Source: a virus
Strand: one strand, 5' to 3'
Length of the DNA: 39,414 nucleotides
IMG/VR virus record: IMGVR_UViG_2225789004_000001
Location: 1-39,414 of that record
Positions 2,099 to 39,414 of this stretch are shown here, one piece after another. The stretch's first letter is position 1. The number at the start of each line of letters is the position of its first letter. The notes beneath the pieces were generated by a model. The model did not search any database and was not told the DNA's origin. It saw only the letters and a list, made by a program, of their open reading frames with translations. Position numbers and translations under genes: made by a program.

Positions 2099-4144
2099 TC
2101 ACCGCCTGCCGGGTTTCAACTGAAACGACCATGTTGTTTTCTTGGAAGTTGAATTTGAAACATACCGTTTTTCGAATCCCTGTAAATCCATTTCAACGGA
2201 AAAGTTACCGCTTGATAACGGTTTATATCCATTTTCGTCACACCAAATAGAATACTCATATTTGTAAAAATGAGCGGCTGTAACAGACTTTAAATATTCG
2301 TTTAATTCAGCCTTTTCGCCATAACCGTTGAGGAACTCTACGACCGGATTTGACAAGATTTCATAGGCTTTTTTCATCTCAATCACACTCTCGGAAATAG
2401 TGAATCCGTATTTTTCCATTCGCCAATATCCTTTTATTGCCTGCTGTATTAGATATTCCAACGATTCGTGCGTTGTCAGTTTATCTATCATTTTATCATC
2501 TTCATCAGTCGAGGTGAATTTTGCAATAAACGGTATCAAGATGATTCTTCGAAGAAAACCATCCGAAGTATCGTCTGTTCTTGGCGGACGGTTTCCGGCG
2601 AAGATGAATTTTGCACAATTTGAAAATTTAATCGGTGTTTGGAATTTTATATCCACTGTCACCGAATCGCCAGTGACGAGTTTCTTAAAAAGGTTTGCAC
2701 CGGACACATATCGCATATTTATGTCACTGCCGATATTGATTAATTTACCGATTAATTTATGAGTGAAAAATTGCTTATTCAAATCTTCAAAATCCAATGA
2801 TTCAATATTATTACCGCCGAAAGCTTTCGTCACTGCTTTTAAGAAAGTGGATTTGCCGTTTGCACCAGAGCCGATTAAGAAAAACGATTTTCCTTTTTCA
2901 TTTCTTGGATTCAGGCAGAAACCAATCATTTCATAGAGAAGTTTTTCTAAATCTTCGTTGTTGCAAGTGATGTCTCTCATAAATTCGTCAAATACCGGCG
3001 ATTTCGCATTTGGATTGAAATCAATCGGTAATTTAAAGAAACAAATCCTGTCCGGTGAATAATCATACACCTTTCCGGTGCGGTTACTCCAAACGCAATT
3101 GCTAAAACCAATAAATTCATACAACTCCGCATCTTGAATATCAAAATTTGGAATCGCTTCTTCGGTTGTTAAGATGAAATCAAAAATTTCATTTATTTCA
3201 TTGCGTTTGAGATTGAAAATCGTATCCATGATTAAAGATTTTAAATTATCATTACGATAAATGCCATTTTGATACGCATACGGAACTCCGTTTATCTTTT
3301 TTATGTGTAAAACATTAATCAGACATTCTGCCGCATCTTGGTGCTTAAAACCATAATGCGGTTCGACAAACTATAACTTATCCGCTTTACCGCCAGTCGC
3401 AACCGTTGCCTTTTCAAATGTCTTATCCCGAAGAATCGCATCCATTTCCTTTTTCGATAATTTCTCTTCAAAAATCATTCCATTGATGATTCGACAAACT
3501 GTTTCAACATCATCTCGATTCATCAACTTTTGAAGTCCAAGAGCAAACTCAGAAAGCGTATGATTCCGGCTTCCTTGCTTCATTTTGAAAATGGATTCTC
3601 GTTTTTTGAAATAATAGAAGAAAAACGGAAGTGGGGACAATTCATCAAACGAATAAATTTCACCAAGAAAATTGCGGTCAATGGTATCCAGTCGAATCGG
3701 CTCATAGTCCGGATTTTTGCCTTGTTCACCGCCGAGTTTATATTCACATTCCAAACCTAACGCACAAATATGTCCTTGCGGTATTTTTTTTGGAATATTT
3801 CCTCTTGGGTTCTCAATCAAATCAGGATTCTTAAAATAGATGTGGTATCCTTTTTCAGTTTGAACGACATTATATTTCAAATCAATTTCGAACATTTCTT
3901 TTTCGACAATTAATTTCAAAAGACTGACTGCGAATTTACCTTCTTCTTCGTTATCGAAATCAAGAACAACAATGCCGTTTCTAATCTCTCCGGCAATGAA
4001 GTTTTCAGTTTCATCAACATTATAAAGCAACGGTGCTGAACGTGGTTGAAGCGGCACTTTCTTTTGCTCTGCATGCCATGCTTTCGCACTTAATTTGAAA
4101 AAACCATTATAAAGAGATTGAATTTTTGGATTTTTTAAGTCCAT
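2099..4144 (-). CDS. Prim-Pol primase fused to D5/P4-type helicase, with one in-frame TAG at 3371..3373
   Basis: ORFs 3371..4153 and 2099..3229 are in the same frame (924 nt apart). The 47 codons between them have no stop. N-terminal part has VVLDFDNEEEG and GYHIYF (Prim-Pol-like). C-terminal part has Walker A GSGANGKST. ATG 4144 is preceded by GAGTGATAAAA. Confidence 0.7.
3371..3373 (-). other. In-frame TAG inside the primase-helicase
   Basis: Context ...ADKL-TAG-FVEPHYGFKHQDAAECLINVLHIKKINGVPYAYQNGIYRND... The frame stays open into the helicase domain. Confidence 0.75.
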
Positions 4145-4149
4145 TTTTA

Positions 4150-4407
4150 TCACTCATCTGGTAAACGCTTTGCCAATACTCTTTCTTCGTGTTGTCGTTC
4201 AATGGATTGTAAAAATCTGGAAATCCGATACCGAATTTCTTTAATATCGTTTTGTTCCAATTCTTCGCCAACTTCCTCTATTTTTATGTGAAACAATTTC
4301 GGATTATCTTTCTGAACCGAAACTTTAACCATCATTACGATTTGAGAATCTAAATCTGTTGAAACATTTACCGGCGAACTCTTTTTTTTGAAAATATTAT
4401 TAAACAT
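4150..4407 (-). CDS. Hypothetical protein
   Basis: ORF track 4150..4578. ATG 4407 is preceded by GGAG. The upstream part of the ORF overlaps a hairpin-containing spacer. Confidence 0.5.
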   Translation of the reverse strand: MFNNIFKKKSSPVNVSTDLDSQIVMMVKVSVQKDNPKLFHIKIEEVGEELEQNDIKEIRYRISRFLQSIERQHEERVLAKRLPDE

Positions 4408-6973: not shown

Positions 6974-7087
6974 GGATGTTTATGTTGTCTGCTATCGTTA
7001 TATTATATTATGTGTTGATTATGGGTTATTACTTTTTTATGTTTTCTTATTACTTTTTATGATTTTTTTTCAGTATTATATTTTTAA

Positions 7088-7123
7088 TTGTAAATTTACA
7101 ATTTTTTACAATATTTTTACAAT
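7088..7123. repeat. Iteron cluster 1: 14-bp palindrome TTGTAAATTTACAA plus three direct TTTACAAT
   Basis: TTTACAAT at 7095, 7105 and 7116, spaced 10 to 11 bp. Inverted ATTGTAAA at 7088. Confidence 0.8.
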
Positions 7124-13295: not shown

Positions 13296-13805
13296 ATGGC
13301 ATCTTCTCAATTACCAAAAACTCTGGAATTTTGGCTCTCGGATAAAGGGCTTCTCATTTTGAATAGTTTCGGTAGAGCCGGAATGACTGTTAAAGAAGTG
13401 TGTGAAAAAATCTCTATTTCTCAAAAAATATTTAAAGCATGGATGGAAACACACCATTCGATTCGAAATGCGTTTAATCTGGAAGAACGGAATTATATTG
13501 ATATTGTTGAAGGCAAACTTTTAAAAGCCGTAACCAATGAAATTGAAACCTACAACGAAAAAAGCGTTGTTGAAAGAATTGTTTATGATTCCGAAGGTAA
13601 ACAAGTTGGTAAGGTTGTCACAAAAAAGACAGTTGAAAAGCCGATTAAAATCGAATCTGAATTAATGAAATTTTATCTCACCAATCGTGCGGCAGATAAA
13701 TGGGCGTATTCACCTGAACCAATTAAGAAACGAAATGTTTCAAAATTAGAGGAAATTATGCAAGAATGGGTATCGGAAAGCAATAAAGAGAGTGATGAAG
13801 AATGA
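13296..13805 (+). CDS. terS: Terminase small subunit-like HTH protein
   Basis: N-terminal HTH (GMTVKEVCEKISISQKIFKAWM), then ...IVEGKLLKAV... and ...FYLTNRAADKW... typical of TerS proteins. Positioned upstream of terL. Confidence 0.5.
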   Translation: MASSQLPKTLEFWLSDKGLLILNSFGRAGMTVKEVCEKISISQKIFKAWMETHHSIRNAFNLEERNYIDIVEGKLLKAVTNEIETYNEKSVVERIVYDSEGKQVGKVVTKKTVEKPIKIESELMKFYLTNRAADKWAYSPEPIKKRNVSKLEEIMQEWVSESNKESDEE

Positions 13806-14521
13806 AAGTTTTAGTTACCGGAACAACACACGGAATTGGACATTCAATTGCAAGGTTATTCTTGGAAGAAGGACATTTGGTTGTCGGGTTGGATATTGAA
13901 CCTGAAATCGACCCTTTAAGTGCCGAGTTTGCCGATTGGAAATTTTATCAATGTGATGTCGGAAAGCCGGAAGAATTGCCGGACGAATCTGATTTTGAAA
14001 TCATCGTAAATAACGCCGCAACTACGGATGAAAAATCCGCAATTCAGACCAATCTTCTTGGTTATGTGAATGTTGGTGAAAAATACGCTTTCCAAGAAAG
14101 AATTAAATCAGTTGTAAACATTTGTTCAATATCATCAGTTAGTGGAATTGAATTGCCGAATTATTGCATTTCAAAAGGCGGTAATTTAGCATATTCACAA
14201 AACTTATCTCTTCGATTAGCACCAAGAGCAACAGTAAATGCGATTATCTGCGGCGGTGTGATTACTAAAATAAATCAAGAGATTTTAGATGACGAGAAAC
14301 TTTACCAAATGTGTAAAGACGAAACCCTTCTTGGAAAATGGTGTCAGCCAAGAGAAGTGGCAGATTTAGTTTATTATTTGACAGTTGGAAATAAATCTAT
14401 CACTGGACAAACTATAACTATTGATAACGGTGAATGTGCCAAATTCAATTTTATTGGAACTTCCGAAGTTAAAAATGAATTTTATAAATCACAGTTTAAA
14501 AGGAGTGAATTATATGAGTAA
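13802..14521 (+). CDS. Classical short-chain dehydrogenase/reductase (SDR)
   Basis: TGTTHGIGHSIA (TGxxxGxG), NNAA, catalytic Ser region CSISSVSG, YCISK (YxxxK). Confidence 0.85.
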   Translation: MKVLVTGTTHGIGHSIARLFLEEGHLVVGLDIEPEIDPLSAEFADWKFYQCDVGKPEELPDESDFEIIVNNAATTDEKSAIQTNLLGYVNVGEKYAFQERIKSVVNICSISSVSGIELPNYCISKGGNLAYSQNLSLRLAPRATVNAIICGGVITKINQEILDDEKLYQMCKDETLLGKWCQPREVADLVYYLTVGNKSITGQTITIDNGECAKFNFIGTSEVKNEFYKSQFKRSELYE

Positions 14522-15844: not shown

Positions 15845-16540
15845 ATGATTGAAATGATACAGAATGAATTGCTGTTTTTTGTCACCATGTTGGTGAACTT
15901 CTCCGGCATCTTGATTGCTTATAAATTGTTTGGTAAACAAGGTCTTTTCGTATGGATGGGGCTTGCGATTGTTATAACTAACATCGAAGTCCTCAAATGC
16001 GTGGATATGTTCGGATGGGCTGTCACGTTAGGAAATGTGATATACGGCACAACTTTCTTGGTTACGGACATCCTTAACGAGAAATATGGTGTAAAAAAAG
16101 CACGGATGGCGGTTATGGTCGGATTCTTTGCGATGATTGTTTTCACGGTTATCATGCAGGTAAATCTTCTCTTCGAAGTGAATGCCGCCGACTTTTCCAA
16201 AGATGCTTTTGAAACAATCTTCGCCGTTCTGCCAAGAATTGCAATCGCTTCTATTATTGCTTATCTTGTCGCAAATCTTATTGATGTTCAAGTTTATCAT
16301 TTCATCAAAAAGGCATTGCCGGACGATAAGTGGTTATGGGTGCGAAACAACGGCTCATCCCTCTGCGGACAAGCAATCGACACTGTTATTTTTGGAATTA
16401 TCGCATTTATTGGACTTTACGAATTTCCGATAATTTTCCAACTCACAATAACAAGTTATATCTTAAAATTTGTGATTACTCTTTGCGAAACACCGTTTTT
16501 ATACATTGCGAAACGAATAAAGCCGATTTACGATGAGTGA
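15845..16540 (+). CDS. yhhQ: YhhQ/DUF165 (VUT) family queuosine-precursor transporter
   Basis: Polytopic membrane protein. GNVIYGTTFLVTDILNEKYGVKKAR and SSLCGQAIDTVIF match YhhQ signatures. Confidence 0.7.
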   Translation: MIEMIQNELLFFVTMLVNFSGILIAYKLFGKQGLFVWMGLAIVITNIEVLKCVDMFGWAVTLGNVIYGTTFLVTDILNEKYGVKKARMAVMVGFFAMIVFTVIMQVNLLFEVNAADFSKDAFETIFAVLPRIAIASIIAYLVANLIDVQVYHFIKKALPDDKWLWVRNNGSSLCGQAIDTVIFGIIAFIGLYEFPIIFQLTITSYILKFVITLCETPFLYIAKRIKPIYDE

Positions 16541-17867
16541 AATATTTAATCCAAAGCAAAAGCGTTCTTTTAGACGTTTTATTCAAAAAGCGTTTAAAAG
16601 AATTAACTTTTTTGAAGGGTCGGTATCATCTGGAAAGACCTACATCACATTGATTCTTTGGTCTCTCTGGGTGATGTCACGACCGCCGCAATCAGTCCAT
16701 CTTATGTTCGGAAGAACTATCACTTCTTTGGAACGTAATTGTCTGCTTCTTTTGACGGAACTGTTCGGCGAAGAAAATGTTCAATACTCTGTTTCTTCGA
16801 AAAGGATGCGACTATTTGGCAGGCTTGTCTGGTTAGAAGGTGCGGATAACGAAAGAGCCAGAGCGAAAATTCAAGGTTTAACGATTGATTCAGTGTATGG
16901 TGATGAACTCCCACTCGTTCCGGAAACCTTTTTTAACATGGTTCTTTCTCGTATGAGGATTCTCGGCTCGAAAGGATTTTTTACCGGAAACCCCGATGAC
17001 CCGACAAATTACGTTAAGAAGAATTGGATTGACCGCATTGAAGAGGACGATTTAGATATGATGGTTGAACATTATCATATCTGCGATAATTCGATGTTTC
17101 TTCCGGAAGGTTATATTGAAAATTTATAGAAAGAATACACTGGCGTGTTCTTCAAACGTTACATAGAAGGTCTTTGGGTTGTTGCCGAAGGTGCAGTTTA
17201 TCAATTGTTTGGCGATAATTCAGACGATTATATTATTGATTTGAAAGATTACAATTTTGATAATTTAATGTATATCAACATTGGCATAGATGTTGGTGAA
17301 ACAGAATCCGGAACTGCGTTCACAGCAACCGGCTTTGAGAAAAATTATGCCGGCATTGTTGCTCTGGATGCCGACTGGATTAAAGGAAATGCCTTAACCG
17401 ACCCCACCGCACTTTACGAAGCGTTTCATGCTTTCTTGGCACGGCAACAATATGACGGTGTGAAGGTAAAAGCGATTTATTTCGATAAGGCTCAACAATT
17501 TTTAAAACGTGGTTTAGTAACTTATCTTTCTTCCAAAGGAATCAACATCCAAGTTTACGATAGTTTAAAATATCCTATCAACGATAGAATTATGGTTACA
17601 AACGCATTATTTTCAACATATAAATTAAAAATAAGCACACGATGTCCGCATTTGATAAAAGCGTTTAAAGAAGCAGTTTGGAAAGCGAATACAACGCCGA
17701 TGGAACGACTTGATGACTTCACTTCTGACATTGATAGTTTAGATTCGTTTGAGTATTCAATCGAAGATGGAATGTATAACATCGTCACCTTTTTACAGAA
17801 ACCAAAAATCAGATTTCCAAAAGAAAATTTAATGATAAAGTTACAAACGCAGAGGTTATATGAATGA
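16533..17867 (+). CDS. terL: Terminase large subunit, with one in-frame TAG at 17127..17129
   Basis: ORFs 16533..17129 (Walker A GSVSSGKT, Walker B VYGDE) and 17145..17867 (nuclease half, IGIDVGETESG) are in the same frame (612 nt apart). Codons 17130..17144 (KEYTG) are open. Confidence 0.85.
17127..17129 (+). other. In-frame TAG inside terL
   Basis: ...PEGYIENL-TAG-KEYTGVFFKRYIEGLWVVAEGAVY... Confidence 0.8.
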
Positions 17868-23046: not shown

Positions 23047-23409
23047 ATGCCGAGTAAAGTTAAAATTGATTTCAAACCATCAAAAATAAATGAAAAATTA
23101 GGCGTTGCCGCATCTTCGGCAACGAAAATGATGATGAATGAGGTGCATAAGGATTCGAATTTCTTCGCACCGGATTTAGAAGGAAATTTGAAAAGAAAAG
23201 TTGAACTGGTTCGCCGAAACGGCAACTGGGTTTTGATTTGGATGTCGGTTTATGCCAGACGGCTTTATTACGGCATTACTTTCAAATTTTCAACACATAA
23301 AAATCCAAACGCATCATCTTTTTGGTTTCATAAAGCAAAAGCGAAAAATTTATCAAAATGGATGAACTTTTTAAAACAATCATTTAAAAGAGAATATGCG
23401 AGGTTATAA
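23047..23409 (+). CDS. HK97 gp10-like tail component
   Basis: ...NFFAPDLEGNLKR...YARRLYYG... pattern and position. Confidence 0.5.
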   Translation: MPSKVKIDFKPSKINEKLGVAASSATKMMMNEVHKDSNFFAPDLEGNLKRKVELVRRNGNWVLIWMSVYARRLYYGITFKFSTHKNPNASSFWFHKAKAKNLSKWMNFLKQSFKREYARL

Positions 23410-23410
23410 A

Positions 23411-23938
23411 ATGTTAGAATTTTTATCACAATTTTTATTTAAATCGGACACGACACACCCGCTTTATCTTATCATAGCATCCATTTATGGTTTTATAACT
23501 GGTGCTATCGGTTTCGCTTTCGGCAATTGGTATGGTTTATTGGCTATTCTTGGCTGTTTGATTACCCTTGACACTATTCTTGGAATCATTGCCGCCGCCA
23601 AAGAAGGTCAGGTTGTAAACAGCAAGATTTTTGCGAAAATGTTTTTTTTGCACAAATTCATCCCATACAGTGCGGCAATCGGATTTTCGGTCTGTATTGA
23701 TTCATTAATTAAGATTTTCTTAACCAATGGAATTGATTTGATACCGCTTTTCGATTGGTTGCCTTATGCCGATGTTATTCTTGGAAACATTTTAACCGTT
23801 ATCTTAATGACGTGGCTTATTGTTAAAGAATCTTGGTCGATTTTGGAAAACCTGACTATTATTGATTCAAAAATCGTTCCGTCACCGATTAAGAAAGTGA
23901 TTGCGAAATTAATGCAAATTGTGAACCCGAATGAGTGA
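23411..23938 (+). CDS. Holin, TcdE/Phage_holin_4_1-like
   Basis: ITLDTILGIIAAAKEGQVVNSKIF and IVKESWSILENLTIIDSKIVPSPIKK resemble TcdE ISFDTLLGCLSAIKSRKFNS and ILYESVSILKNL..GLPVP. Multiple TM helices. ATG 23411 follows GAGGT. Confidence 0.65.
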   Translation: MLEFLSQFLFKSDTTHPLYLIIASIYGFITGAIGFAFGNWYGLLAILGCLITLDTILGIIAAAKEGQVVNSKIFAKMFFLHKFIPYSAAIGFSVCIDSLIKIFLTNGIDLIPLFDWLPYADVILGNILTVILMTWLIVKESWSILENLTIIDSKIVPSPIKKVIAKLMQIVNPNE

Positions 23939-24388: not shown

Positions 24389-24862
24389 ATGGGATTAACA
24401 TACGATGAACCGCAATCTCTCATGCCTAATTTTGAGAGCGAATTCTATGTCTCGGATGATTTAACAACTGCTTTGGAAGATGTTGAATGGGTTCCAGTCA
24501 TGGGAATTACTGAAATCAACAACAACTTCGACCCGACAACTTTGACAAGAGCCTACTACAATGACGGTGGGGCACAACGTGAATATCCAATCGGATTTAA
24601 ATTTACAGTTGATATTGCCGGAGACAGAGATTTGAATGATGAAGGTCAGAATCTTCTCTTTGACATTGAAAGAATTTTCGCAACTGGAACAAAACGACAG
24701 ATTCGTTGCAAATATTTAACCGAAGAATTCACAATCACCGGAGTCAGCAATCAAGCATACGGTATCGCACAAAACGGCGAAGCACTTGAATTTGCAACAT
24801 TCGACCTTGCGTTTACATTTCAAGGAACACCGAAAATTATCGAAACACCAACTACACCTTAA
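24389..24862 (+). CDS. Major tail protein
   Basis: 157 aa, positioned upstream of the chaperones and tape measure gene. Confidence 0.5.
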   Translation: MGLTYDEPQSLMPNFESEFYVSDDLTTALEDVEWVPVMGITEINNNFDPTTLTRAYYNDGGAQREYPIGFKFTVDIAGDRDLNDEGQNLLFDIERIFATGTKRQIRCKYLTEEFTITGVSNQAYGIAQNGEALEFATFDLAFTFQGTPKIIETPTTP

Positions 24863-24888: not shown

Positions 24889-25272
24889 ATGGTATTTGAA
24901 TTTCAAAAACCCGACCAACATCCGATAAATATCAAAATCGGCGACAAGGAATACACTTATTACGTTGATGAATACACAATAAATCACGGAATTTATGCAA
25001 AAGCAAAAATGTTAGAAACCGATGCGTTAAATTCAAACACACCGGAAGAAATCGCCGTGACATATCCGGCACGAATTAAAGAACTTTGTGTTGATGTGTT
25101 TGGCGAAGAAGTTTATAACGCATTATCTGAATTTGCCGAAAAAAATCCTTATCGCCTTTCAAAGATGGTTATTCAGTATCTTAACACTGATTTCAAGGAA
25201 CAATATCAACAAATCATCCAAGTGGCATACGCTTCCAAAGTATCTTCTCTGAAACCGAATAAAAAGCGATGA
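24889..25272 (+). CDS. Tail assembly chaperone-like protein
   Basis: Lies between the major tail and tape measure genes. GGAGTGATACAAA SD. Confidence 0.45.
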   Translation: MVFEFQKPDQHPINIKIGDKEYTYYVDEYTINHGIYAKAKMLETDALNSNTPEEIAVTYPARIKELCVDVFGEEVYNALSEFAEKNPYRLSKMVIQYLNTDFKEQYQQIIQVAYASKVSSLKPNKKR

Positions 25273-25280
25273 GGTAAAGA

Positions 25281-25922
25281 ATGGATTTATTAAAATCGGA
25301 TTTACATCCGATTTTTACTTATAAGAAATGGGATTTCACATTAAATCTTTCTTTGGAACGTGTTCTTAATGCCATTTCTGCACTTGATGAAGAAGCGGAC
25401 ATAAAACAACTCGACCGCTTCTATCTCGTTTTGGATAATTTACTTGATGTCAATTCTAATGATTTTGATACTTTTGAGTATCTTGAAGAAATGACTTGTT
25501 TTGAACAATAGGAAGTTTTCACCATATTGCTGAAAACCTTCGTATTTCCGCCGGAATCTGCGATAAAACGCTCAACTCCATCTTTCGATATTAACTATGA
25601 TTTTGAACTCGTTTATACAGCGATTTTGAAGGCTTTTAATATTGACATTATCGACCAAAAAGAAGTGCTTTCTTGGAACAAATTCAGAGCCTTATTAAAA
25701 GATGTGAATGAAGATTCGATGTTAAATCGTGTTATTGAAATTCGAGAAATGCCTTTACCGCCTGCTACCAAGAAAAATATGGAACGGCGTGCTGAAATCA
25801 GGCGTGCGAAAAAGAAATATGACCTTCCGCACCTGAAAAAAGCAAGAAAGGAAAAAGAACGAGAGACATTGAGAAAGATGGCGGAAATGCAAAAGAAGGC
25901 GGAAGAAAATGGCAACACCTGA
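25281..25922 (+). CDS. Tail assembly chaperone-like protein, with one in-frame TAG at 25509..25511
   Basis: ORFs 25281..25511 and 25527..25922 are in the same frame (246 nt apart). Codons 25512..25526 are open. The basic C-terminal tail overlaps the tape measure start. Confidence 0.5.
25509..25511 (+). other. In-frame TAG in the chaperone gene
   Basis: ...EEMTCFEQ-TAG-EVFTILLKTFVFPPES... Confidence 0.65.
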
Positions 25923-28260
25923 TGGTTTTATTCATGTCGAAGCGGATGTTAATTTCAAAAATGCCGAAAAATCTGTAAAAGATTTCGGCAATCAAATGGA
26001 AAAAGACATTTCCGCAAACATGGGTTTTTTGGATAATAAGTTTAACGCATTAGCCGAAGGTATTGATGAAGATTTCGAAAAAATCAGTAAATCCAGTAAG
26101 AAAAACTTCAAAGATGTTGAAACGGAAGGCGGTAATTCAAGTGCCATGATTGCCGGTGCATTTGCCGGCGTTGCAATGTCTATTGCTAATTCTTTTATAG
26201 AAATGGCGAAATCCGCACTCGCTTCGCTGAAACAATTGGTTGCCGATTCGATTTCTTTGGTAATTGAATTTGACGATGCGATGCGTGGTGTTCAAGCTAC
26301 TCTTGGTATTCATGGTGAGGAAGCCGCTGAAACATTGAAACAAATTGAAGATGCCGCAAGAGAAATGGGTGCGACAACGCAATACACCGCAATGGATGGT
26401 GCAAATGCGTTACAGTATATGGCACAAGCAGGTCTTGGACTTCAAGATTCTTTGGAACTTGCCCCTGTTTCCCTTCAATTTGCTTCTGCCGGAAATATGG
26501 AAATTGCCGAATCCGCACTTTACGCTACTCAAATGATGAAAGCGATGGATTTGGAACTTGAAGAACTTCCGGCAACTTTGGATATGATTGCGAAATCTTC
26601 GCAGATTTCATCCACTTCAATTTCTCAAATGAGCGATGCCATTTTGACAGTTGGTGCGACAGCACCTGCCGCAAAGCAAGATATGCAAGATGTTATCGCC
26701 GTGATGGCAGTCTTTTCAAACAACGCTATCACTGCTTCCGAAGCCGGAACATCATATCGTAATATGTTGCGTTTGATGACTTCGCCCGGAAATCAGGCAC
26801 AAGAAGCATTAGATAAACTTGGTGTTTCAGCATACGATTCTTCTGGAAATATTCGACAGATGACGGATGTTTTCAAAGATATGCGAAAAGCACTCGATGA
26901 AAGCGGTTATACCGACCAAGAGAGAGCAAATTTCATTGAGGAAGTTTTCGGCACTTATAATTCAAGAGCCGCAAACGCTTTATTGAAAGATATTGGCGAT
27001 GTTGATGAAATTATGGCAGAACTTACTGAATCCGGCGGCACGATGGAAATCATGGCTGAAATTCGGGAAGGCGGCACTGGCGGTATGAAACGTGAGTTAG
27101 AGTCCATGACCGAAGAAATCATGCTCACTCTTGGAAGAAATTTAGAACCAATTTTGCAAATTATTATCCCGATGGTGAATGATTTACTTTCAAAGCTTCA
27201 ACCAATCATCGAAGAATTATTTGGATTAATTACCGAAGAGAATCTTGCCGCAGTCGGTGAAGTTTTGCAATGGGTTTCTGATTTGACAATTATTTTCGCA
27301 GAACATTTATTGAGAATTGGAAAAATTGTTATTCCACTTATGGCAGAAGCCTTTACTACACTTGTTAAATGGCTCACTCCAACTGTGAATATGTTGAAAG
27401 TTGCATTACCGCTTATTTCACGAGCGTTTCTCTTTCCATTGCAACAACTCGCAAACATGATAAAACCGATTTATGCCGCTCTTCGAGATTTATTCGATTA
27501 CCTTCAACCAGTTTTTGAATGGGTTGGATACCACATCGGTCAATTTATTCAAATGTGCGAGGACATCCTCGAAATGTATTACAAACTTTCCAAGAAAGGT
27601 AAAGAGGAATTTGATAAAATTGATGAGGAAATTATCGAAGTCACCGAAGAAGTTAAAAATCTCGATGATGCTTTGACTGATTTAGACGGTAAAGAAATCA
27701 ATATGACCGCAACTCTTCATCAGACAACAAGTGGCGGTTATACCAGTGGTTCTTCCGGTGGCGGTGGCGGCGGTGGAAGCAGTGGTGGTTCGTCTCAATA
27801 CGCAAGCACTGTTTATGCGGTAAAAGGTATCAGTTACGGCAATGACGGAAGTGGCAATGTCGGATATTATAATTCAAAAACAGGTGCTTCCGTTTCCGAA
27901 GCAGAAGTAAAACAAAAATTCAATGCAAACCAATCCGACCCGAAATACAAAGTGTATCACTCCGGCGGAATTGTTGATGGTGTTGGCGATGTTCCTGCTC
28001 TCTTGGAAGCAGGTGAAATGGTTTTGACGAAAGGGATGCAATCCAAACTTTTCGGCATGATTAACAACGCAAGTTATTCAAATGGTGGCGACAGCGGAAT
28101 GGGATTGACTGATATTGTTAATGCTCTTACCGAAGCAATAAAAAACACACCTTTAAATATCAACAACCAAGTAAATGCTGTATTCAATAAAAGAACTCTT
28201 GCCAAAGAATTGATTCCTGAATTTGAAACCGAATTAAAGAGATTAGGACAAGGATTATGA
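25909..28260 (+). CDS. Tape measure protein
   Basis: 783 aa, helical. AMRGVQATLGI...TTQYTAMDGANALQYMAQAGL core. Gly/Ser run near the C-terminus. Confidence 0.85.
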   Translation: MATPDGFIHVEADVNFKNAEKSVKDFGNQMEKDISANMGFLDNKFNALAEGIDEDFEKISKSSKKNFKDVETEGGNSSAMIAGAFAGVAMSIANSFIEMAKSALASLKQLVADSISLVIEFDDAMRGVQATLGIHGEEAAETLKQIEDAAREMGATTQYTAMDGANALQYMAQAGLGLQDSLELAPVSLQFASAGNMEIAESALYATQMMKAMDLELEELPATLDMIAKSSQISSTSISQMSDAILTVGATAPAAKQDMQDVIAVMAVFSNNAITASEAGTSYRNMLRLMTSPGNQAQEALDKLGVSAYDSSGNIRQMTDVFKDMRKALDESGYTDQERANFIEEVFGTYNSRAANALLKDIGDVDEIMAELTESGGTMEIMAEIREGGTGGMKRELESMTEEIMLTLGRNLEPILQIIIPMVNDLLSKLQPIIEELFGLITEENLAAVGEVLQWVSDLTIIFAEHLLRIGKIVIPLMAEAFTTLVKWLTPTVNMLKVALPLISRAFLFPLQQLANMIKPIYAALRDLFDYLQPVFEWVGYHIGQFIQMCEDILEMYYKLSKKGKEEFDKIDEEIIEVTEEVKNLDDALTDLDGKEINMTATLHQTTSGGYTSGSSGGGGGGGSSGGSSQYASTVYAVKGISYGNDGSGNVGYYNSKTGASVSEAEVKQKFNANQSDPKYKVYHSGGIVDGVGDVPALLEAGEMVLTKGMQSKLFGMINNASYSNGGDSGMGLTDIVNALTEAIKNTPLNINNQVNAVFNKRTLAKELIPEFETELKRLGQGL

Positions 28261-28646: not shown

Positions 28647-30445
28647 TACCGCAATCATCGCAATATTATGTCAATGTTGATAAACCGATAAGAGAACCGT
28701 TCCACCCGACAGTTTTACTTTCATCTTCTGACCCGACATTGATTGCAAAAACACAGTTCGATTCTTCATCATCAGAACTTGTTTTTTCAAAACGTAACCA
28801 ACTTTTTAACCAAATTGTTAATCCTTCTTGGGGATTGCAAACTTTCGAACCAAATAGAACCATTGCAGATGGCAGTTTTGTCGTTTTTGATGATAATACC
28901 GCAGGTGAATTTGGATGGTGGTCGGAAGCAAGATGTGATGAGAATGGAGTTTTTGAAACACCGCAAATTATCAAACTAAACTACACGGAAAATTTAAATT
29001 TCATTGAGTTCAGTATCTTTTTCGATTCTTTTGGTAAAGAATGGTCTGATGATTTTGAAATTTTCTTTTATTCCCAATCCGGTGCAGTTATTCAAAGTTA
29101 TCATATTACCGATTGTGATTCTCCGATTTATCTGATTGAAAATGAATTAAATTTCGTCAGAAGTATGGAAATCAGAATCAATAAATGGTCTGTCGGACAC
29201 CGATTCGCAAAGATTTCAGAATTACTTTCAGGATTCGTTATTTCTTTCACCGATGACGAAATATTTGGAATTTCATTCACTGAAAATTTATCGCTTTTCC
29301 AAGAAGAAATCATCTCGTCAGAATTGTTAATTACAGTTGAAAATTTCAACCAACAGTTCAACATTAATAATCCGCAAGGTGTAGCGAAAAAATTGAATTT
29401 GAGACAAGTTTTCACTGCCGCAATTTCTTTGGAACATGAGTCTATTCCTCTTGGTCTAATGTATCTCATGGAACAACAAAATAACGACCGCAACTTCATT
29501 ACGTTTGTTTGTCGTTCGGTTTTTGATTTTAGCGAAGATGAATATATTCCAGAATCGTGGGAAACTTGTTCTGCATATTCATTATTTGAAAAATTATTCC
29601 AAAAAATTGGAATAAATGAATACGATATTCCTGAAAGTTTGAAAAATATTCAAGTAAATCAGTATGTCGAAAAAATGTCAATCAGACAAGCAATTCAACA
29701 ACTCGCAAATTCTGTTCGTTGTGTTGTTTATGTAAACAGAACCGGAAGTGTAACTGTCGATACCATCAATTCGTTATTTTCGCATACCGGACAATCTATC
29801 ACTTTAAATCAGAACACAACCGAAGAACCACCGAGAGTTGAAAAGTTAAAAACTAATGATTCAGCAACGGTGAATATTTATCAATATTCCAAAGATGATG
29901 AAATTGGAAATACGGAACTTGTAAAGGATTTTAAAGTTTTGGTTGATTCACCAACCCCAGTTTCGTATATTATTTCATACAAAACTATCGCTGATTCTGT
30001 AACCGCAGAAGTTACTGGCGCATCTGTTAGCGGCAATATTCTCTATTATGCAGATAGATGTGAAATTATGCTTTTCGGTCAAGGTGAAGCAGTTGTAAAT
30101 ATTTCAGGCACTCCTGTTTTACAAAAAATCGGAAAAGTTAATATAAAATCAGATTTATTTTATTTGAATCCGATTAAAGAGGATTATCTGATTGAAAATC
30201 AATTTATCGCATCCACTTCGGAAGGACGAATACTCGCAAGTGCATTTGTTGAATTTTCACAATTTAGATTGCGACATGAAGTTTACGAACGTGGCAGACC
30301 GGATTTGGAAGTTGGAGATATGATTAATGTCGAAAATGAGTTTGGACTTTTAACCAATGGAATCATTTTTGAACAAAATATCGAATTTAACCAGAATGGA
30401 TTTTTAGAAGGAAAAATGATTATCAAAGCAAAAGGTGAAAATTAA
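28643..30445 (+). CDS. Baseplate or tail-tip structural protein
   Basis: 600 aa, positioned after the tape measure gene. Confidence 0.55.
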   Translation: MIPQSSQYYVNVDKPIREPFHPTVLLSSSDPTLIAKTQFDSSSSELVFSKRNQLFNQIVNPSWGLQTFEPNRTIADGSFVVFDDNTAGEFGWWSEARCDENGVFETPQIIKLNYTENLNFIEFSIFFDSFGKEWSDDFEIFFYSQSGAVIQSYHITDCDSPIYLIENELNFVRSMEIRINKWSVGHRFAKISELLSGFVISFTDDEIFGISFTENLSLFQEEIISSELLITVENFNQQFNINNPQGVAKKLNLRQVFTAAISLEHESIPLGLMYLMEQQNNDRNFITFVCRSVFDFSEDEYIPESWETCSAYSLFEKLFQKIGINEYDIPESLKNIQVNQYVEKMSIRQAIQQLANSVRCVVYVNRTGSVTVDTINSLFSHTGQSITLNQNTTEEPPRVEKLKTNDSATVNIYQYSKDDEIGNTELVKDFKVLVDSPTPVSYIISYKTIADSVTAEVTGASVSGNILYYADRCEIMLFGQGEAVVNISGTPVLQKIGKVNIKSDLFYLNPIKEDYLIENQFIASTSEGRILASAFVEFSQFRLRHEVYERGRPDLEVGDMINVENEFGLLTNGIIFEQNIEFNQNGFLEGKMIIKAKGEN

Positions 30446-31875
30446 TGCAACCTTCAAGTGATATTATTTATATAACTTTTAACGAAGAGAAAATAGGATA
30501 CAATGGAACAGTCTATCCTATTTTAAAATCTTCTTTATCTACAATAACACCCTTTTTGGAATTTTCAGATAAAGATAAAAATCCATTGAAATTTTATTTA
30601 GATTCTCAATCGGAAACAACTTGGTTTTATATTATTCGATTTGATGCTAAAATAGGAATAAATAAAATTTATATTCACCCATCCAATATCAATAATAGTA
30701 GCATTGATGTTTTTGATGATTATTACGATTTAAGTAAAGGATTAGATGGAAGATTACAAGTATCAGACCCTTCAACAGGTGGTAATGAAGCGGCTTATCT
30801 TGCTTTGGTTTGGCGAAACAGTTTAACAGGAAGCACAATAGCTAACAGAGTAATCCAAGAAGTAGATGGATTACGATATGTAGGTAACTTCTCTCATTTT
30901 ATCAGACCTATATCATCTGTTAAAAACAAAGATTCTTTCGGTGATACATGGGAAGCAAAGGTTGAACATAATAACATTTATTCGAGATGTATATTTGGTT
31001 TTTCTATGCCAAGCCTTAATACAAATTCATATTCAGAAGGTATTAAAAAAGGAAATAACAATAGTTTATCAACAGGGAATAATATTTATTATAACGAATC
31101 AAATTCATCATCATTTAAAACAGATACTGATGCTGAACATGTAAAAACTGATATTTTTGGATTCAATACATTTGAAAATGGCGGTAACAGTTATTTTATT
31201 TCAGAAGATTATTCGAGTAAAATCGAAAGTGGATTTAAGCAAAGAAATCCGAATAGTGGATTACAAACTAACATTAGACATGAATTGAAAATTTGGTCTT
31301 ACGGCGTTAATTTGTCAGATAATTATAAATTATCAACCAAATGGTTTTGGATTCGAAAAAGAACAAATCCGATTCCGAATACCTTTATAATCACTATAAA
31401 TGACGATTAGGAATTTATACCAATTCCTCAATATGCATGGTTTTCTACATCTCCTATTAATGATTTTGATTTTAATAGAATTTCAAATAATATCGCAGTG
31501 TGTTGGACGATTCTTAATAAGATGGGTTATGTGAATCAATTTAGAGAAATGAGATGTGATTTCGATTTTTTTGAACATTTAGACGACCATATTCGTTTAT
31601 CCAAAGAATGGAAGAACATGAGAGAGAATTTGTGGGATTTGTATAAAGTATTTCCTTTGGTACAAATGTTTCCGGAAGCACCGATTTATGTTCAGTTTGT
31701 TGAACCGTCACCAAGAAATCCGGTGGAAGCATTAACGGCAAGTTTATTAAATTCAATGGAAATTAACTTGGCAAACTTATATTACTATTTAACGATATTA
31801 GAATTTGAAAGATTACCGATATTAATGACTGAAAACAGAATGAGACAAAGAATAGTGAGGAAACCGAATGACTGA
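30445..31875 (+). CDS. Tail fibre or receptor-binding protein, with one in-frame TAG at 31408..31410
   Basis: ORFs 30445..31410 and 31498..31875 are in the same frame (1053 nt apart). All 29 codons between them are open, and there is no SD-like motif before the downstream fragment. Confidence 0.5.
31408..31410 (+). other. In-frame TAG in the fibre gene
   Basis: ...IITINDD-TAG-EFIPIPQYAWFSTSPINDFDFNRISNNIAVCWTIL... Confidence 0.6.
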
Positions 31876-34292: not shown

Positions 34293-34523
34293 TTATCTCT
34301 TTTTCATTAATTCGTCTATCTGATACTGTAAATACTAACATTCATCGCCTAAATCGTTATAGCGATAAACCAATTTATTGTAGGCATCTGTATTCGGAAT
34401 TTGACAAATCAGGAAAACATTCTGAACTTTCATAAATTCCTTTGTGACTTTTTCTAATTTCGTTTTCAATTTTGAAATCTTTCGTTTATGGAAATACTTT
34501 TCAATAAAATTCATTTTAATCAC
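34293..34523 (-). CDS. Small protein, with one in-frame TAG at 34335..34337
   Basis: Track ORF 34335..34523 ends in TAG. The same frame continues YLQYQIDELMKKR to TAA at 34293..34295, 5 nt before the terminator stem. Confidence 0.5.
34335..34337 (-). other. In-frame TAG
   Basis: ...YNDLGDEC-TAG-YLQYQIDELMKKR-TAA. Confidence 0.5.
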
Positions 34524-36304
34524 CAGTCAGATAATGTTTTCTGAAACGCAGAAGTCTCAATTTCTTTAATTTGGTCTCGGCACATTCGAGCATAATATTC
34601 AAAATCCAACCACTCTGGACATTTTTTACCCAGAATTTCACCATTCAAGATAATTCCTTTGGAAGTCACATTCGGTATCCCGTCACCTTTTTCATCCTTT
34701 TTCCACTTCACATGAACCGCCATTTCCGGTTTCGTTATCGGGAACCACCTTATAACCTTATATGGCAAATCCTTGCCAAATTCGTCTATAAAGCCCTCAT
34801 GCTCGCCAACCGACACAATCCTCTGGAACAGTTGTAAATTCCCTTTATTGGCGGAAATTGACTCGTTTACAAGGATTCCATGAACGAAATAATCCTGCAA
34901 AACAATCGGTATTATTCCGAGGTCACATTTGAGTGAAGATGGAAGTTTGAAAGCACCGATTGCTTTGACATTGTTTTCCTCTTCATCCGTTACCCAGATG
35001 TAAGAATTGACATCTCTTTGGAAACAGCCGATGAGATTTTTAAATTCTAATTCAAATCCGGTTCTTTTTTGCCATTCTTCGCAGATTTCCATACATTTTT
35101 TGGTGCAATCGGCGTTTAATGGGTGAATACACAAACCATCGGTGTTGGAGTTTATTGGTTTGCAATACGGTTCGAGTTTTTCGAGTAAATCCAAGAGAAA
35201 TAATTGACCGAAGGCACAAATGTTTCTACCCATGCGAGGGTCGTATGATTTTGAAAATTCATAAATCGTTGTTCCAAAGAAAGTGTTTAAAAGAACTTTT
35301 AAAGCGTTTGCAACAGGGTCTTTTTTGGCTTTTAATTCCAATCGTTCCCAATATGCTTCTACATATCTGTCGATGTTTTCAACAGCACGAGACATCAAGT
35401 GATAGAGGATGATGATTGTCGGATAATAACTTTTGACATCAAGAACCAACATCTTTTCTTCGCCGCTGTCCGGCGACCAACGCCAACAGACCATCAAATC
35501 CGTTGAGTGCATACCGCCCCACGCAACTGTATGATTCACACCACCGATTTTGAAATTATTTTGTCGATATGGTTTGCCTTTTTCATTTAAAACAGATGAT
35601 TCAGGACTTAAAAACCAATCAACCACATGATGGTATTTTTCAATTCTTAAATTTTCAGGAATTTCGATTTCAAACTCATCATCTGTCGGAATCCTTCTTT
35701 TGGCATCGACAATTTCGGCAACGAGTTGTGCTTTTGTTAATTTGAAATGAGAAATCGGTAAATCGAATTTGTTAATTAAAAGAGCATGATTTTTGAACTC
35801 TTCAATCCGTTCATAGAAAACAGTTTCGAGAGCATTAACATCCGCCCAACAATATTCTTCCACTTCTGCCAATTCTTCTTCGGTAAGAGGACGGTCAATG
35901 TCGAAAGGAACTGATGTTTCAATAATTGACAAACCCATGTGTGCTTCGAGTTTCTTTAAACCGATTTGTTCAGTCATCACATCGAAGAAAACGAATTTTG
36001 GAACGGATTTGTTTTTCAACACTTCCCATCCACGTTTTTTGTATTTGATGATTTGGTCGTTTACGAATTTTGGTTCAACTCCGGCACAAATGGCTTGGAT
36101 AATATACTGGTCGTAATGTCGAATATTATAACCGACCGTGATGTCGTCTTTATGTTTAACCACAAATTCAATTAATGCTCTGCGGTCGTTGTGGAAACTG
36201 ATTTGTTCACCGTTTTTAAATTTGTAACACACCAACCAGTCATAAGCATAAACTTCGGTATCGCAAAAGATAACATCTCTCAAAAAATCACCCATTTCGT
36301 CCAA
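34520..36304 (-). CDS. Family B DNA polymerase
   Basis: Exo I FCDTEVY, Exo II YNIRHYDQ, Exo III YCWADVNAL. Polymerase motif A LDVKSYYPT, motif B KVLLNTFFG, motif C NSNTDGL. Confidence 0.85.
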   Translation of the reverse strand: MDEMGDFLRDVIFCDTEVYAYDWLVCYKFKNGEQISFHNDRRALIEFVVKHKDDITVGYNIRHYDQYIIQAICAGVEPKFVNDQIIKYKKRGWEVLKNKSVPKFVFFDVMTEQIGLKKLEAHMGLSIIETSVPFDIDRPLTEEELAEVEEYCWADVNALETVFYERIEEFKNHALLINKFDLPISHFKLTKAQLVAEIVDAKRRIPTDDEFEIEIPENLRIEKYHHVVDWFLSPESSVLNEKGKPYRQNNFKIGGVNHTVAWGGMHSTDLMVCWRWSPDSGEEKMLVLDVKSYYPTIIILYHLMSRAVENIDRYVEAYWERLELKAKKDPVANALKVLLNTFFGTTIYEFSKSYDPRMGRNICAFGQLFLLDLLEKLEPYCKPINSNTDGLCIHPLNADCTKKCMEICEEWQKRTGFELEFKNLIGCFQRDVNSYIWVTDEEENNVKAIGAFKLPSSLKCDLGIIPIVLQDYFVHGILVNESISANKGNLQLFQRIVSVGEHEGFIDEFGKDLPYKVIRWFPITKPEMAVHVKWKKDEKGDGIPNVTSKGIILNGEILGKKCPEWLDFEYYARMCRDQIKEIETSAFQKTLSDW

Positions 36305-37647: not shown

Positions 37648-38343
37648 TTAAGGTAAATTTTTCATCAATTCATCGACTTCTTTTGATGCCGCATCCAGTT
37701 GAGCATCCGTCATCTTTGATGTTTGAGATACGGTTCGTTTTTCTTCCGGCTTTTCTTCTTTCGGTTTTGTCGCAGGTGCGGTTGCCGTTACCGAAGTTTC
37801 TTTGGAAACAGGTTTAGAAGCGTGAGGTTGTGATATGTCCGGTGCTGAATTAAGCGGCGTGGCTTCCGGCGGCGTTTGTGTCAAATTTGAAGCAAACGCC
37901 CCGTCATCGTCAGGTTCGCCGCAAGTGATTCCGAGCAGTCCGGTGATAAGGAAGCGCTTTGAATAAGTTTTTGAAGCACCATAACCTTGTGCGTTGTTGT
38001 CTTTGTTCAATGGTAAAGTTCCGGCGGAACCCATCCACTGACCAGAAATGTGGGAAATCTGACATCCGAAATCAACGAAAATTTGAGTAATTTCTTTATT
38101 CTTTTCGTCACGGTAATGTTCAATTTTGTATCCCGGAAATGAAGGGAAGGAAGCAATCATTCCATGCTTCGCCAACTTCGGTCTGATTTCATCCATAATT
38201 GTGTCGAAATCTGCGTATTTGTTTTTATGGTATCCAGTTGCAGTAAAACAGATTCTGGTATTCTCTTTTTGAAATTCGACCATCGCCGTAACGAGTTTGT
38301 CGATTTCCGGACTCATAAACATTTGAAAATGGTCGGTTTGCAT
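37648..38343 (-). CDS. erf: ERF-family single-strand annealing protein
   Basis: KYADFDTIMDEIRPKLAKHGM ... HISGQW ... QGYGASKTYSKRFLITGLLGITCGEPDDDG. Confidence 0.75.
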   Translation of the reverse strand: MQTDHFQMFMSPEIDKLVTAMVEFQKENTRICFTATGYHKNKYADFDTIMDEIRPKLAKHGMIASFPSFPGYKIEHYRDEKNKEITQIFVDFGCQISHISGQWMGSAGTLPLNKDNNAQGYGASKTYSKRFLITGLLGITCGEPDDDGAFASNLTQTPPEATPLNSAPDISQPHASKPVSKETSVTATAPATKPKEEKPEEKRTVSQTSKMTDAQLDAASKEVDELMKNLP

Positions 38344-38390: not shown

Positions 38391-38393
38391 CTA
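38391..38393 (-). other. TAG at the ORF end (ambiguous: stop or sense)
   Basis: ...NLTLI-TAG-EMEQSSKFFNFFGVKICKPTIFKCL-TGA. The extension has no independent support. Confidence 0.3.
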
Positions 38394-39316: not shown

Positions 39317-39414
39317 TTATAACCAAAAGGCTTGTTTGCAATCCGAACAATGATATTCTTCAAATATTCGGTTTTTAATCGTTTCATCACTGCTGCTCAT
39401 ATTGACATTTCTAA
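39317..39414 (-). CDS. C-terminal part of the junction-spanning Zn-ribbon ORF (see 1..91)
   Basis: ...ETIKNRIFEEYHCSDCKQAFWL then TAA at 39317..39319. The last 33 nt duplicate 1..33. Confidence 0.5.
   Translation of the reverse strand, partial: RNVNMSSSDETIKNRIFEEYHCSDCKQAFWL
39382..39414. repeat. Terminal overlap, right copy (identical to 1..33)
   Basis: Same 33-mer as 1..33. Confidence 0.9.

Follow-up and report, generated by a model that had tools for sequence, protein, structure and literature searches.

What does an in-frame stop codon do inside a conserved phage tail gene? The question is raised by IMG/VR virus record IMGVR_UViG_2225789004_000001, in which a gene of the Gp15 family, situated directly before the tape measure gene, is interrupted by a single TAG. 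The whole stretch of DNA that was analysed (hereafter the window, 39,414 nucleotides) is a complete, circularly assembled phage genome of about 39.38 kb, whose ends overlap exactly over 33 bp (1-33 and 39382-39414). The original prediction for this gene held that partial decoding of the TAG could yield a short and a long product, and so replace the programmed -1 frameshift that produces the G and GT tail chaperones in long-tailed phages. The analysis favours a different answer, with a probability of roughly 0.7: the Gp15 TAG is one of four positionally conserved amber codons, which would reflect sparse amber recoding or suppression throughout a phage lineage.

The gene itself has the layout originally described, with 76 codons, a TAG, and 136 in-frame codons that end inside the start of the tape measure gene; these coordinates proved exact. 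It opens with an ATG (25281-25283) that has its own ribosome-binding site (GAGG, 6 nucleotides ahead), and its 76 sense codons lead to the TAG (25509-25511). The 136 further codons (25512-25919) end at a TGA (25920-25922), and the tape measure gene begins (ATG at 25909) before this open reading frame (ORF) is finished, giving an overlap of 14 nucleotides. The chance of an open stretch of 136 codons was roughly estimated from base composition at 5e-5. When translated through the TAG, the gene gives one match to the Pfam family Phage_Gp15 (PF06854), which spans the stop (residues 8-182, corresponding to positions 5-170 of the 170-position profile) and scores 79.3 bits against a gathering cut-off of 23. 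The same product also matches PHROG 706. Judged by its sequence, the open frame past the TAG is real coding sequence and not a chance occurrence.

An AlphaFold2 (AF2) model of the read-through product forms one confident fold, with a predicted local distance difference test score (pLDDT) of 92 and a predicted template modelling score (pTM) of 0.82. Residue 77, which corresponds to the TAG, falls within the N-terminal part, in a loop between helices 63-70 and 79-88, and a linker of lower confidence lies downstream of it at about residues 91-100. Across 134 aligned family members, a conserved amphipathic helix is formed by the residues directly after the TAG site. Because the TAG sits in the loop before this helix, the 76-residue product would be a truncated piece of a single fold. 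The family comprises 648 representatives at E<=0.001, and among the best 150, nearly all are contiguous proteins of roughly 185-230 amino acids. Foldseek searches with the model returned other Gp15 models (E 1e-5), together with weak matches (E 0.02-0.1) to tail assembly chaperones of actinophages and to a 'pre-TMP frameshift protein'. No PDB fold match was found for the model, and a search of the literature on the function of the Gp15 family gave nothing useful. Gp15 is thus probably a chaperone-type (tail assembly) protein, though one made from its own start. To go by the family alignment, the codons after the TAG must be translated in the Gp15 frame.

The same stop is found in related phages. 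The protein database contains one close relative, P0001, which has 127 amino acids and covers only the part after the TAG. The contigs that carry it (L001-L006, from ENA, Logan and JGI/IMG-VR) share the gene order of the window and have a TAG at the identical codon. A third lineage (L012, L013, L014 and L016), reached through its terminase and including a 33.6-kb contig, again has the TAG. The codon was read in L001, L004 and L005 and in L012 and L016, and its surroundings are similar throughout: TCFEQ(TAG)EVFTILLKTF in the window, LCEEQ(TAG)ELFTILLKSY in L001, and MTCDEQ(TAG)ELFTILLNRF in the L012 lineage. Protein identity among the three TAG-bearing lineages is 62-68%. The fraction of identical residues encoded by the same codon is 0.53-0.58 in the Gp15 gene and 0.49-0.59 over the genes of the clade, compared with 0.44-0.51 expected at saturation, so that synonymous sites are near saturated. 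Since the TAG has nonetheless been kept in three lineages, the TAG itself would be under selection.

A single in-frame stop within a conserved domain looks like the mark of a pseudogene, and could stem from a nonsense mutation in a decaying prophage, from a laboratory amber mutant, or from an error of sequencing or assembly. Any of these is scarcely credible. The same TAG appears in independent assemblies made from different samples (ENA, JGI and Logan) at 62-68% protein identity, on which grounds pseudogene and assembly error were rejected. The genome is circular and complete, with its frames intact elsewhere, and no DNA match of the window to any cultured phage was found.

A distant relative, L008, is about 32% identical in Gp15 and has CAG at the site. 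It contains additional in-frame TAGs of its own, including those in a minor capsid protein gene and a small head gene. The Gp15 gene of L008 is also unusual in its beginning (7075-7092), having no ATG, GTG or TTG start. It opens with ATT directly after a TAA, with GGGGGA 6 nucleotides upstream, and because a canonical start is missing, gene callers report only the C-terminal 134 amino acids.

Ribosomes might deal with the TAG without decoding it, by terminating and then starting again. The locus would then be a split gene, which encodes an N-terminal polypeptide of 76 amino acids and a C-terminal one of about 131, the second begun at TTG 25527 by termination-reinitiation. Gene callers do give the C-terminal part as a protein of its own. 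The TTG, five codons past the TAG, is present in the window and in L001, and 11 nucleotides upstream of it lies AGGAAG, an AGGA-like motif that overlaps the TAG. In L012, however, ATT TTA replaces the TTG, and a canonical start (ATG, GTG or TTG) comes only 32 codons later. The intervening peptide is nevertheless conserved, and its ELFTILL segment is kept by synonymous changes (ACC to ACA, ATA to ATT and TTG to TTA). The five codons between the TAG and the TTG encode the first half of the family-conserved helix, and the terminase of L012 likewise has no restart codon for about 44 codons after its TAG. Re-initiation at TTG 25527 was rejected because the start is missing in L012 though the peptide is kept, and a split gene is highly improbable. 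Since peptides after the TAG are conserved in relatives that have no restart codon, the TAG must be decoded. The functional product of 25281-25922 is, on this comparison, the full 213-amino-acid Gp15-family protein.

Is the stop a peculiarity of the tail genes? Each stop codon was treated in turn as sense, and only TAG joined large pairs of ORFs belonging to one gene; no in-frame TGA or TAA with a comparable effect was found in the window. The TAG-joined genes are four: those for a primase-helicase, the large terminase and the Gp15-family protein, and a tail gene referred to here as gene B. All four are split by gene callers. The large terminase aligns through its TAG site to PDB 5oea, and the TAG, which lies in GYIENL(TAG)KEY, is common to the window, L012 and L015. 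The two halves of the primase-helicase match adjoining positions of PHROG 864 (up to 206, and from 209). Homologues in cultured Bacillus, Staphylococcus and Paenibacillus phages are contiguous, and the TAG, in DKL(TAG)F, is shared by the window and L012. This codon is placed in a clade-specific linker of 12 residues, absent in the cultured homologues, between the primase and D5_N/helicase parts.

Gene B matched no Pfam or PHROG family. Its N-terminal 320 amino acids are poorly conserved, and overall identity between the window and L008 is 32%. Nevertheless, a TAG followed by EFIP stands at the same place in the window, in L008 (13353-13355) and in L100 (4792-4794), a contig of the L012 lineage that was recovered with a degenerate DNA motif. 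In the window, gene B has no canonical start for 29 codons past the TAG. The L100 copy has a further in-frame stop near its N-terminus (at about 3800-3850, between SLTIT and AEAV). Relatives assembled independently, at 60-75% protein identity, keep each of the four TAGs in its place. From the distribution of these codons, the conserved TAG is not particular to the tail-chaperone slot.

Whether the TAG could stand in for a frameshift depends on what lies upstream. Two ORFs (24889-25272 and 25281-25922) separate the major tail protein gene from that of the tape measure. The first of these, here called gp14-like, contains one in-frame X_XXY_YYZ heptamer, A_AAA_AAT at 25140, and the -1 extension from it stops after 12 codons. 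The earlier remark that no slippery heptamer is obvious was thus borne out, and the search for a slippery site with a -1 extension into 25281 gave no productive one in the window. Relative to the upstream ORF, which it does not overlap, Gp15 lies in frame -1, and a TAA between the genes (25275-25277) closes that frame. With no productive heptamer and a closed frame, fusion of the gp14-like ORF to Gp15 by a -1 or +1 shift was rejected for the window.

The frame relation between the two genes differs among relatives. It is -1 and blocked in the window, -1 and open in L001, and +1 in L012, while in L008 Gp15 is in the same frame as the gp14-like ORF, behind two TAA stops. L001 has the heptamer A_AAA_AAG (2767-2773) eight codons ahead of the gp14-like stop, from which an open -1 frame of 88 codons leads to the Gp15 TAG. 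A productive A_AAA_AAG of this kind is not conserved in the window, L012 or L008. Since the frame relation varies across the clade, the L001 heptamer is probably a by-product of the lysine-rich C-terminus. When relatives are compared for a frameshift or a stop at this location, the TAG is kept in L001 and L012, L008 has CAG, and L001 is the only one with a productive heptamer.

The gp14-like ORF of the window aligns to gp14-like proteins of cultured phages over 106 columns (hhalign probability 60%, E 8.5e-5). Its AF2 model (pLDDT 76) consists of a beta-hairpin and four helices, for which no significant fold match was obtained. Between the profiles of the gp14-like and Gp15 families, similarity is not significant (E 0.15) and is confined to the N-terminal hairpin. 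A gp14-like gene followed by an uninterrupted Gp15 gene occurs in four cultured phages, namely Latilactobacillus phage TMW 1.706 P2, Bacillus phage IEBH, Lactobacillus phage phiJB and Streptococcus phage 33888. In all four, as in the window, the Gp15 gene (gp61 in IEBH) stands just before the tape measure gene. None of these four has an annotated slippage, a productive heptamer or a TAG. Consequently, there would be no frameshift in need of replacement. Judging from the cases examined, Gp15-type modules generally lack the classical frameshift, with or without a TAG.

These results bear directly on the proposal that the TAG is a leaky terminator, which would give a fixed ratio of functional products of 76 and 213 amino acids and so do the job of G and GT. 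Several observations are in keeping with it. Three lineages retain the TAG at one and the same codon although their synonymous sites are nearly saturated. The window offers no frameshift signal, and decoding could well be partial, as the phage has no suppressor tRNA. All four TAG-containing genes encode proteins needed in few copies, and L008, with CAG at the site, has a weak ATT start for Gp15 that could be another way of keeping the protein scarce. The Gp15 model also has a weak fold resemblance to tail assembly chaperones and to 'pre-TMP frameshift' proteins. However, the TAG lies inside one fold, and the 76-residue fragment would end in a loop, without the next family-conserved helix. A separate gp14-like gene already occupies the G position, as in the cultured phages, which make one uninterrupted Gp15 with neither a TAG nor annotated slippage. 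The parallel conserved TAGs in the terminase ATPase domain, the primase-helicase and the tail gene would generate short forms that, for the terminase and primase-helicase, have no known role, and a truncated terminase might be harmful. The CAG of L008, together with the lack of any conserved RNA structure or sequence context around the TAGs, also speaks against a functional pair of products. The original prediction is therefore improbable in this form.

Comparison with the lambda-type G/GT chaperones (PMC5009743) leads to a similar contrast. As in that system, two genes are found between the major tail and tape measure genes, the second protein of the window has weak chaperone fold matches, and L001 has an A_AAA_AAG with an open -1 frame. 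Unlike that system, the genes of the window are separate cistrons, a TAA closes the -1 frame, no heptamer is productive, and the frame relation differs among relatives. The products would share no G domain, and the recoding here would be stop read-through inside the second gene. A parallel to stop read-through is offered by the A1 protein of phage Q-beta. Its C-terminal extension is added by programmed read-through of a stop, and the short product is a complete, functional coat protein. A conserved stop passed by some ribosomes would likewise give a truncated and an extended protein. In the window, by contrast, the stop is inside a single predicted fold, three other genes have the same feature, and no stimulatory context was found.

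If lineage-wide amber recoding or suppression is the better explanation, the question becomes how the TAG is decoded. ARAGORN and Rfam found no tRNA genes, either in the complete genome or among the loci retrieved from relatives, and the window had no Rfam hits even at E<=1. Because no suppressor tRNA is present on the phage, the TAG must be decoded by the host or by means of a factor that escaped detection. The sequence around the stops gives no indication of a shared signal. The base after the TAG at nine sites is G in six, A in two and T in one, and the preceding codons vary. No conserved or significant RNA fold was found around five TAG sites, with z-scores of -0.04 to -1.7 and folds that differ between relatives, and an RNA structure that stimulates read-through was rejected for these reasons.

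The residues that align with the TAGs differ from site to site. At the terminase site, 72 of 76 IMG/VR relatives have Lys (encoded by AAG or AAA), and the remainder have Glu (2), Met (1) or Arg (1), while PDB 5oea has Gln. The Gp15 site is Gln (CAG) in L008 and falls in a variable column of the family alignment, and the TAG in the minor capsid gene of L008 aligns with Leu, Tyr or Trp. Naming the inserted amino acid from aligned homologues was abandoned, as the sites disagree. The conserved Lys of the terminase hints that Lys, or something similar to it, is inserted, or that several residues are tolerated.

According to Borges et al., phages in which TAG is recoded are common; only 40% of them had a suppressor tRNA that could be detected, and the TAG aligned best with Gln (bioRxiv 10.1101/2021.08.26.457843). 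A missing tRNA is thus no bar to membership of a class resembling genetic code 15. The window resembles the TAG-recoded gut phages (Borges et al.; Peters et al., PMC9523058) in having in-frame TAGs in conserved domains of essential genes, including the terminase, and modules homologous to those of phages of standard-code Firmicutes. In both, a suppressor tRNA may go undetected and TAG seems to be rare as a terminator; no confident gene of L012 or L008 ends in TAG, but two small early ORFs of the window may do so. It differs in having only four in-frame TAGs in 39 kb, so sparse that reading TAG as sense raises the coding length by only about 3%, from 36,891 to 38,028 bp. In addition, one of the four is in a replication gene, the TAGs of the clade are fixed at the same codons though synonymous sites are near saturation, the residues aligned with them fail to single out Gln (the terminase site is Lys in 72 of 76 relatives), and the complete genome lacks any tRNA. 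The clade therefore fits the amber-recoded class in outline, as far as its sequences go, and departs from it in being sparse, positionally fixed and not clearly Gln.

A number of points weigh against amber recoding across the lineage. Nothing in the complete genome was recognisable as a suppressor tRNA, a release factor or an aminoacyl-tRNA synthetase, although the search for release factors did not cover every ORF. Two small early ORFs apparently end in TAG, so the codon may still terminate sometimes. The residues at the TAG-aligned sites disagree, which is not what a clean code 15, with TAG as Gln, would give. Strict positional conservation of a rare codon is unlike the behaviour of a neutral synonym, and is equally compatible with programmed read-through of low efficiency. 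Finally, the lineages in which the Gp15 gene carries the TAG number only three.

Several of these points favour a variant in which the TAGs are read with low efficiency and serve as throttles or as sensors of host state. The host would decode amber weakly, or in some conditions only, perhaps by a pyrrolysine system or an amber suppressor of its own, so that full-length terminase, primase-helicase, Gp15 and the product of gene B would be made at low or conditional levels. The absence of a phage tRNA and the selection of TAG at fixed sites would suit it, as would the inconsistent residues at aligned sites and the possible use of TAG to terminate the two early ORFs. In the terminase, moreover, the TAG replaces a near-invariant Lys and is one base from AAG. 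Dual reading of UAG as stop and pyrrolysine, with pools of truncated and extended proteins, is documented in Methanosarcina (PMC12626013). In pyrrolysine-encoding organisms, UAG is read both as a stop and as an amino acid with no required cis element, and the ratio of the two pools is set by the state of the cell (PMC12626013). However, these phages have no known link to pyl genes or to a suppressor. One TAG at a conserved Lys site is the only hint connecting them with a pyrrolysine-encoding host, and the Lys signal comes from this single site. The avoidance of TAG as a terminator in relatives fits efficient decoding better. Homologous modules are found in phages that infect Bacillus, Listeria, Streptococcus and similar bacteria, hosts that are not known for amber decoding. 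The variant is rather unlikely.

A more specific proposal may also be made for this clade of small siphoviruses, with its few TAGs and no suppressor tRNA. Ambers in low-copy essential genes would be programmed throttles or sensors of host state. The host would read them weakly or under certain conditions, perhaps by inserting Lys or pyrrolysine, as the conserved Lys of the terminase site hints, and in the tail module Gp15 would be kept scarce relative to the gp14-like protein. This is speculative and rather unlikely. If the throttle were real, the TAG (or, in L008, the ATT start) would achieve by read-through the stoichiometry that G/GT frameshifting provides in other phages. A softer version, in which inefficient decoding keeps four low-copy proteins scarce, is worth testing because of the missing phage tRNA, the selection on the TAG and the ATT start of L008.

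In the reading preferred here, that of sparse amber recoding or suppression, the clade is a small group of uncultured siphoviruses of 34-39 kb with four fixed in-frame ambers. The ribosome would insert an amino acid at the TAG in each of the four genes and continue. The full Gp15 protein of 213 amino acids, a probable tail assembly chaperone, would be translated from its own start, apart from the gp14-like gene. The TAGs are few and each would be held by selection, with decoding left to the host or to an undetected factor. Their role would be to gate or throttle the full-length proteins and not to supply useful short ones.

Recoding of stops in phages is usually recognised from many in-frame stops together with a suppressor tRNA. 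With four ambers and no tRNA, the window would likely be missed by standard screens for altered codes. For annotation, this means that where the terminase, primase or tail-chaperone gene of such a contig is called as two short ORFs, the pair should be joined. Because the TAGs have stayed fixed while synonymous sites turned over, the stop appears to be selected, and its role as a timing gate, throttle or host sensor can be tested. More generally, Gp15-type modules may set the dosage of their chaperones by means other than the supposedly universal G/GT frameshift. The positions of the features discussed here are collected in Table 1.

Table 1. Genes and codons of the window, with strand and the evidence or context for each.
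Feature	Position	Strand	Evidence or context
Primase-helicase gene, TAG at 3371-3373 (codon 261)	2099..4153	-	D5_N, DUF5906, PHROG 864
Large terminase gene, TAG at 17127-17129 (codon 199)	16533..17867	+	Terminase_6N, residues 27-225, spans the TAG
Major tail protein gene	24389..24862	+	PHROG 820 and 3884 'major tail protein', E 1.5e-15
gp14-like ORF at the place of G, 127 amino acids, separate cistron, TGA end	24889..25272	+	Position, hhalign
Gp15-family gene, 213 codons, with one in-frame TAG	25281..25922	+	PF06854, PHROG 706, AF2, Foldseek
In-frame amber codon, codon 77 of the Gp15 gene	25509..25511	+	TAG at the same site in relatives
Codons after the TAG (EVFTILLKTF), family-conserved amphipathic helix	25512..25541	+	Family alignment, model helix 79-88
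Tape measure protein gene	25909..28260	+	Pfam PhageMin_Tail, E 5.9e-42; many tape-measure PHROGs
Tail gene B, unknown family, TAG at 31408-31410 (codon 322)	30445..31875	+	TAG followed by EFIP in relatives
Possible genuine TAG terminator of a 62-amino-acid early ORF (putative gene)	34335..34337	-	ATG of the next gene overlaps
Possible TAG terminator of a 74-amino-acid early ORF (putative gene)	38391..38393	-	Followed by a spacer with a ribosome-binding site and the ERF gene

Other genes of the window were noted in passing. The start of the terminase gene is overlapped by a gene of the Vut_1/YhhQ family (PF02592, E 1e-47; 15845-16540), which occupies the same place in L012 and L015. This family includes transporters of queuosine precursors. 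The queuosine status of tRNA-Tyr is known from other systems to affect read-through of UAG. Prophage relatives, which might have indicated the host, were looked for in species-representative genomes and none were found. The window also has genes for a DNA polymerase of its own (34520-36304), for an ERF recombinase (37648-38343) and for a short-chain dehydrogenase (13802-14521). A protein of 180 amino acids with a Phage_holin_4_1 domain (23396-23938) is encoded among the head-tail connector genes, outside any lysis cassette, an arrangement common to L001, L008 and L012.

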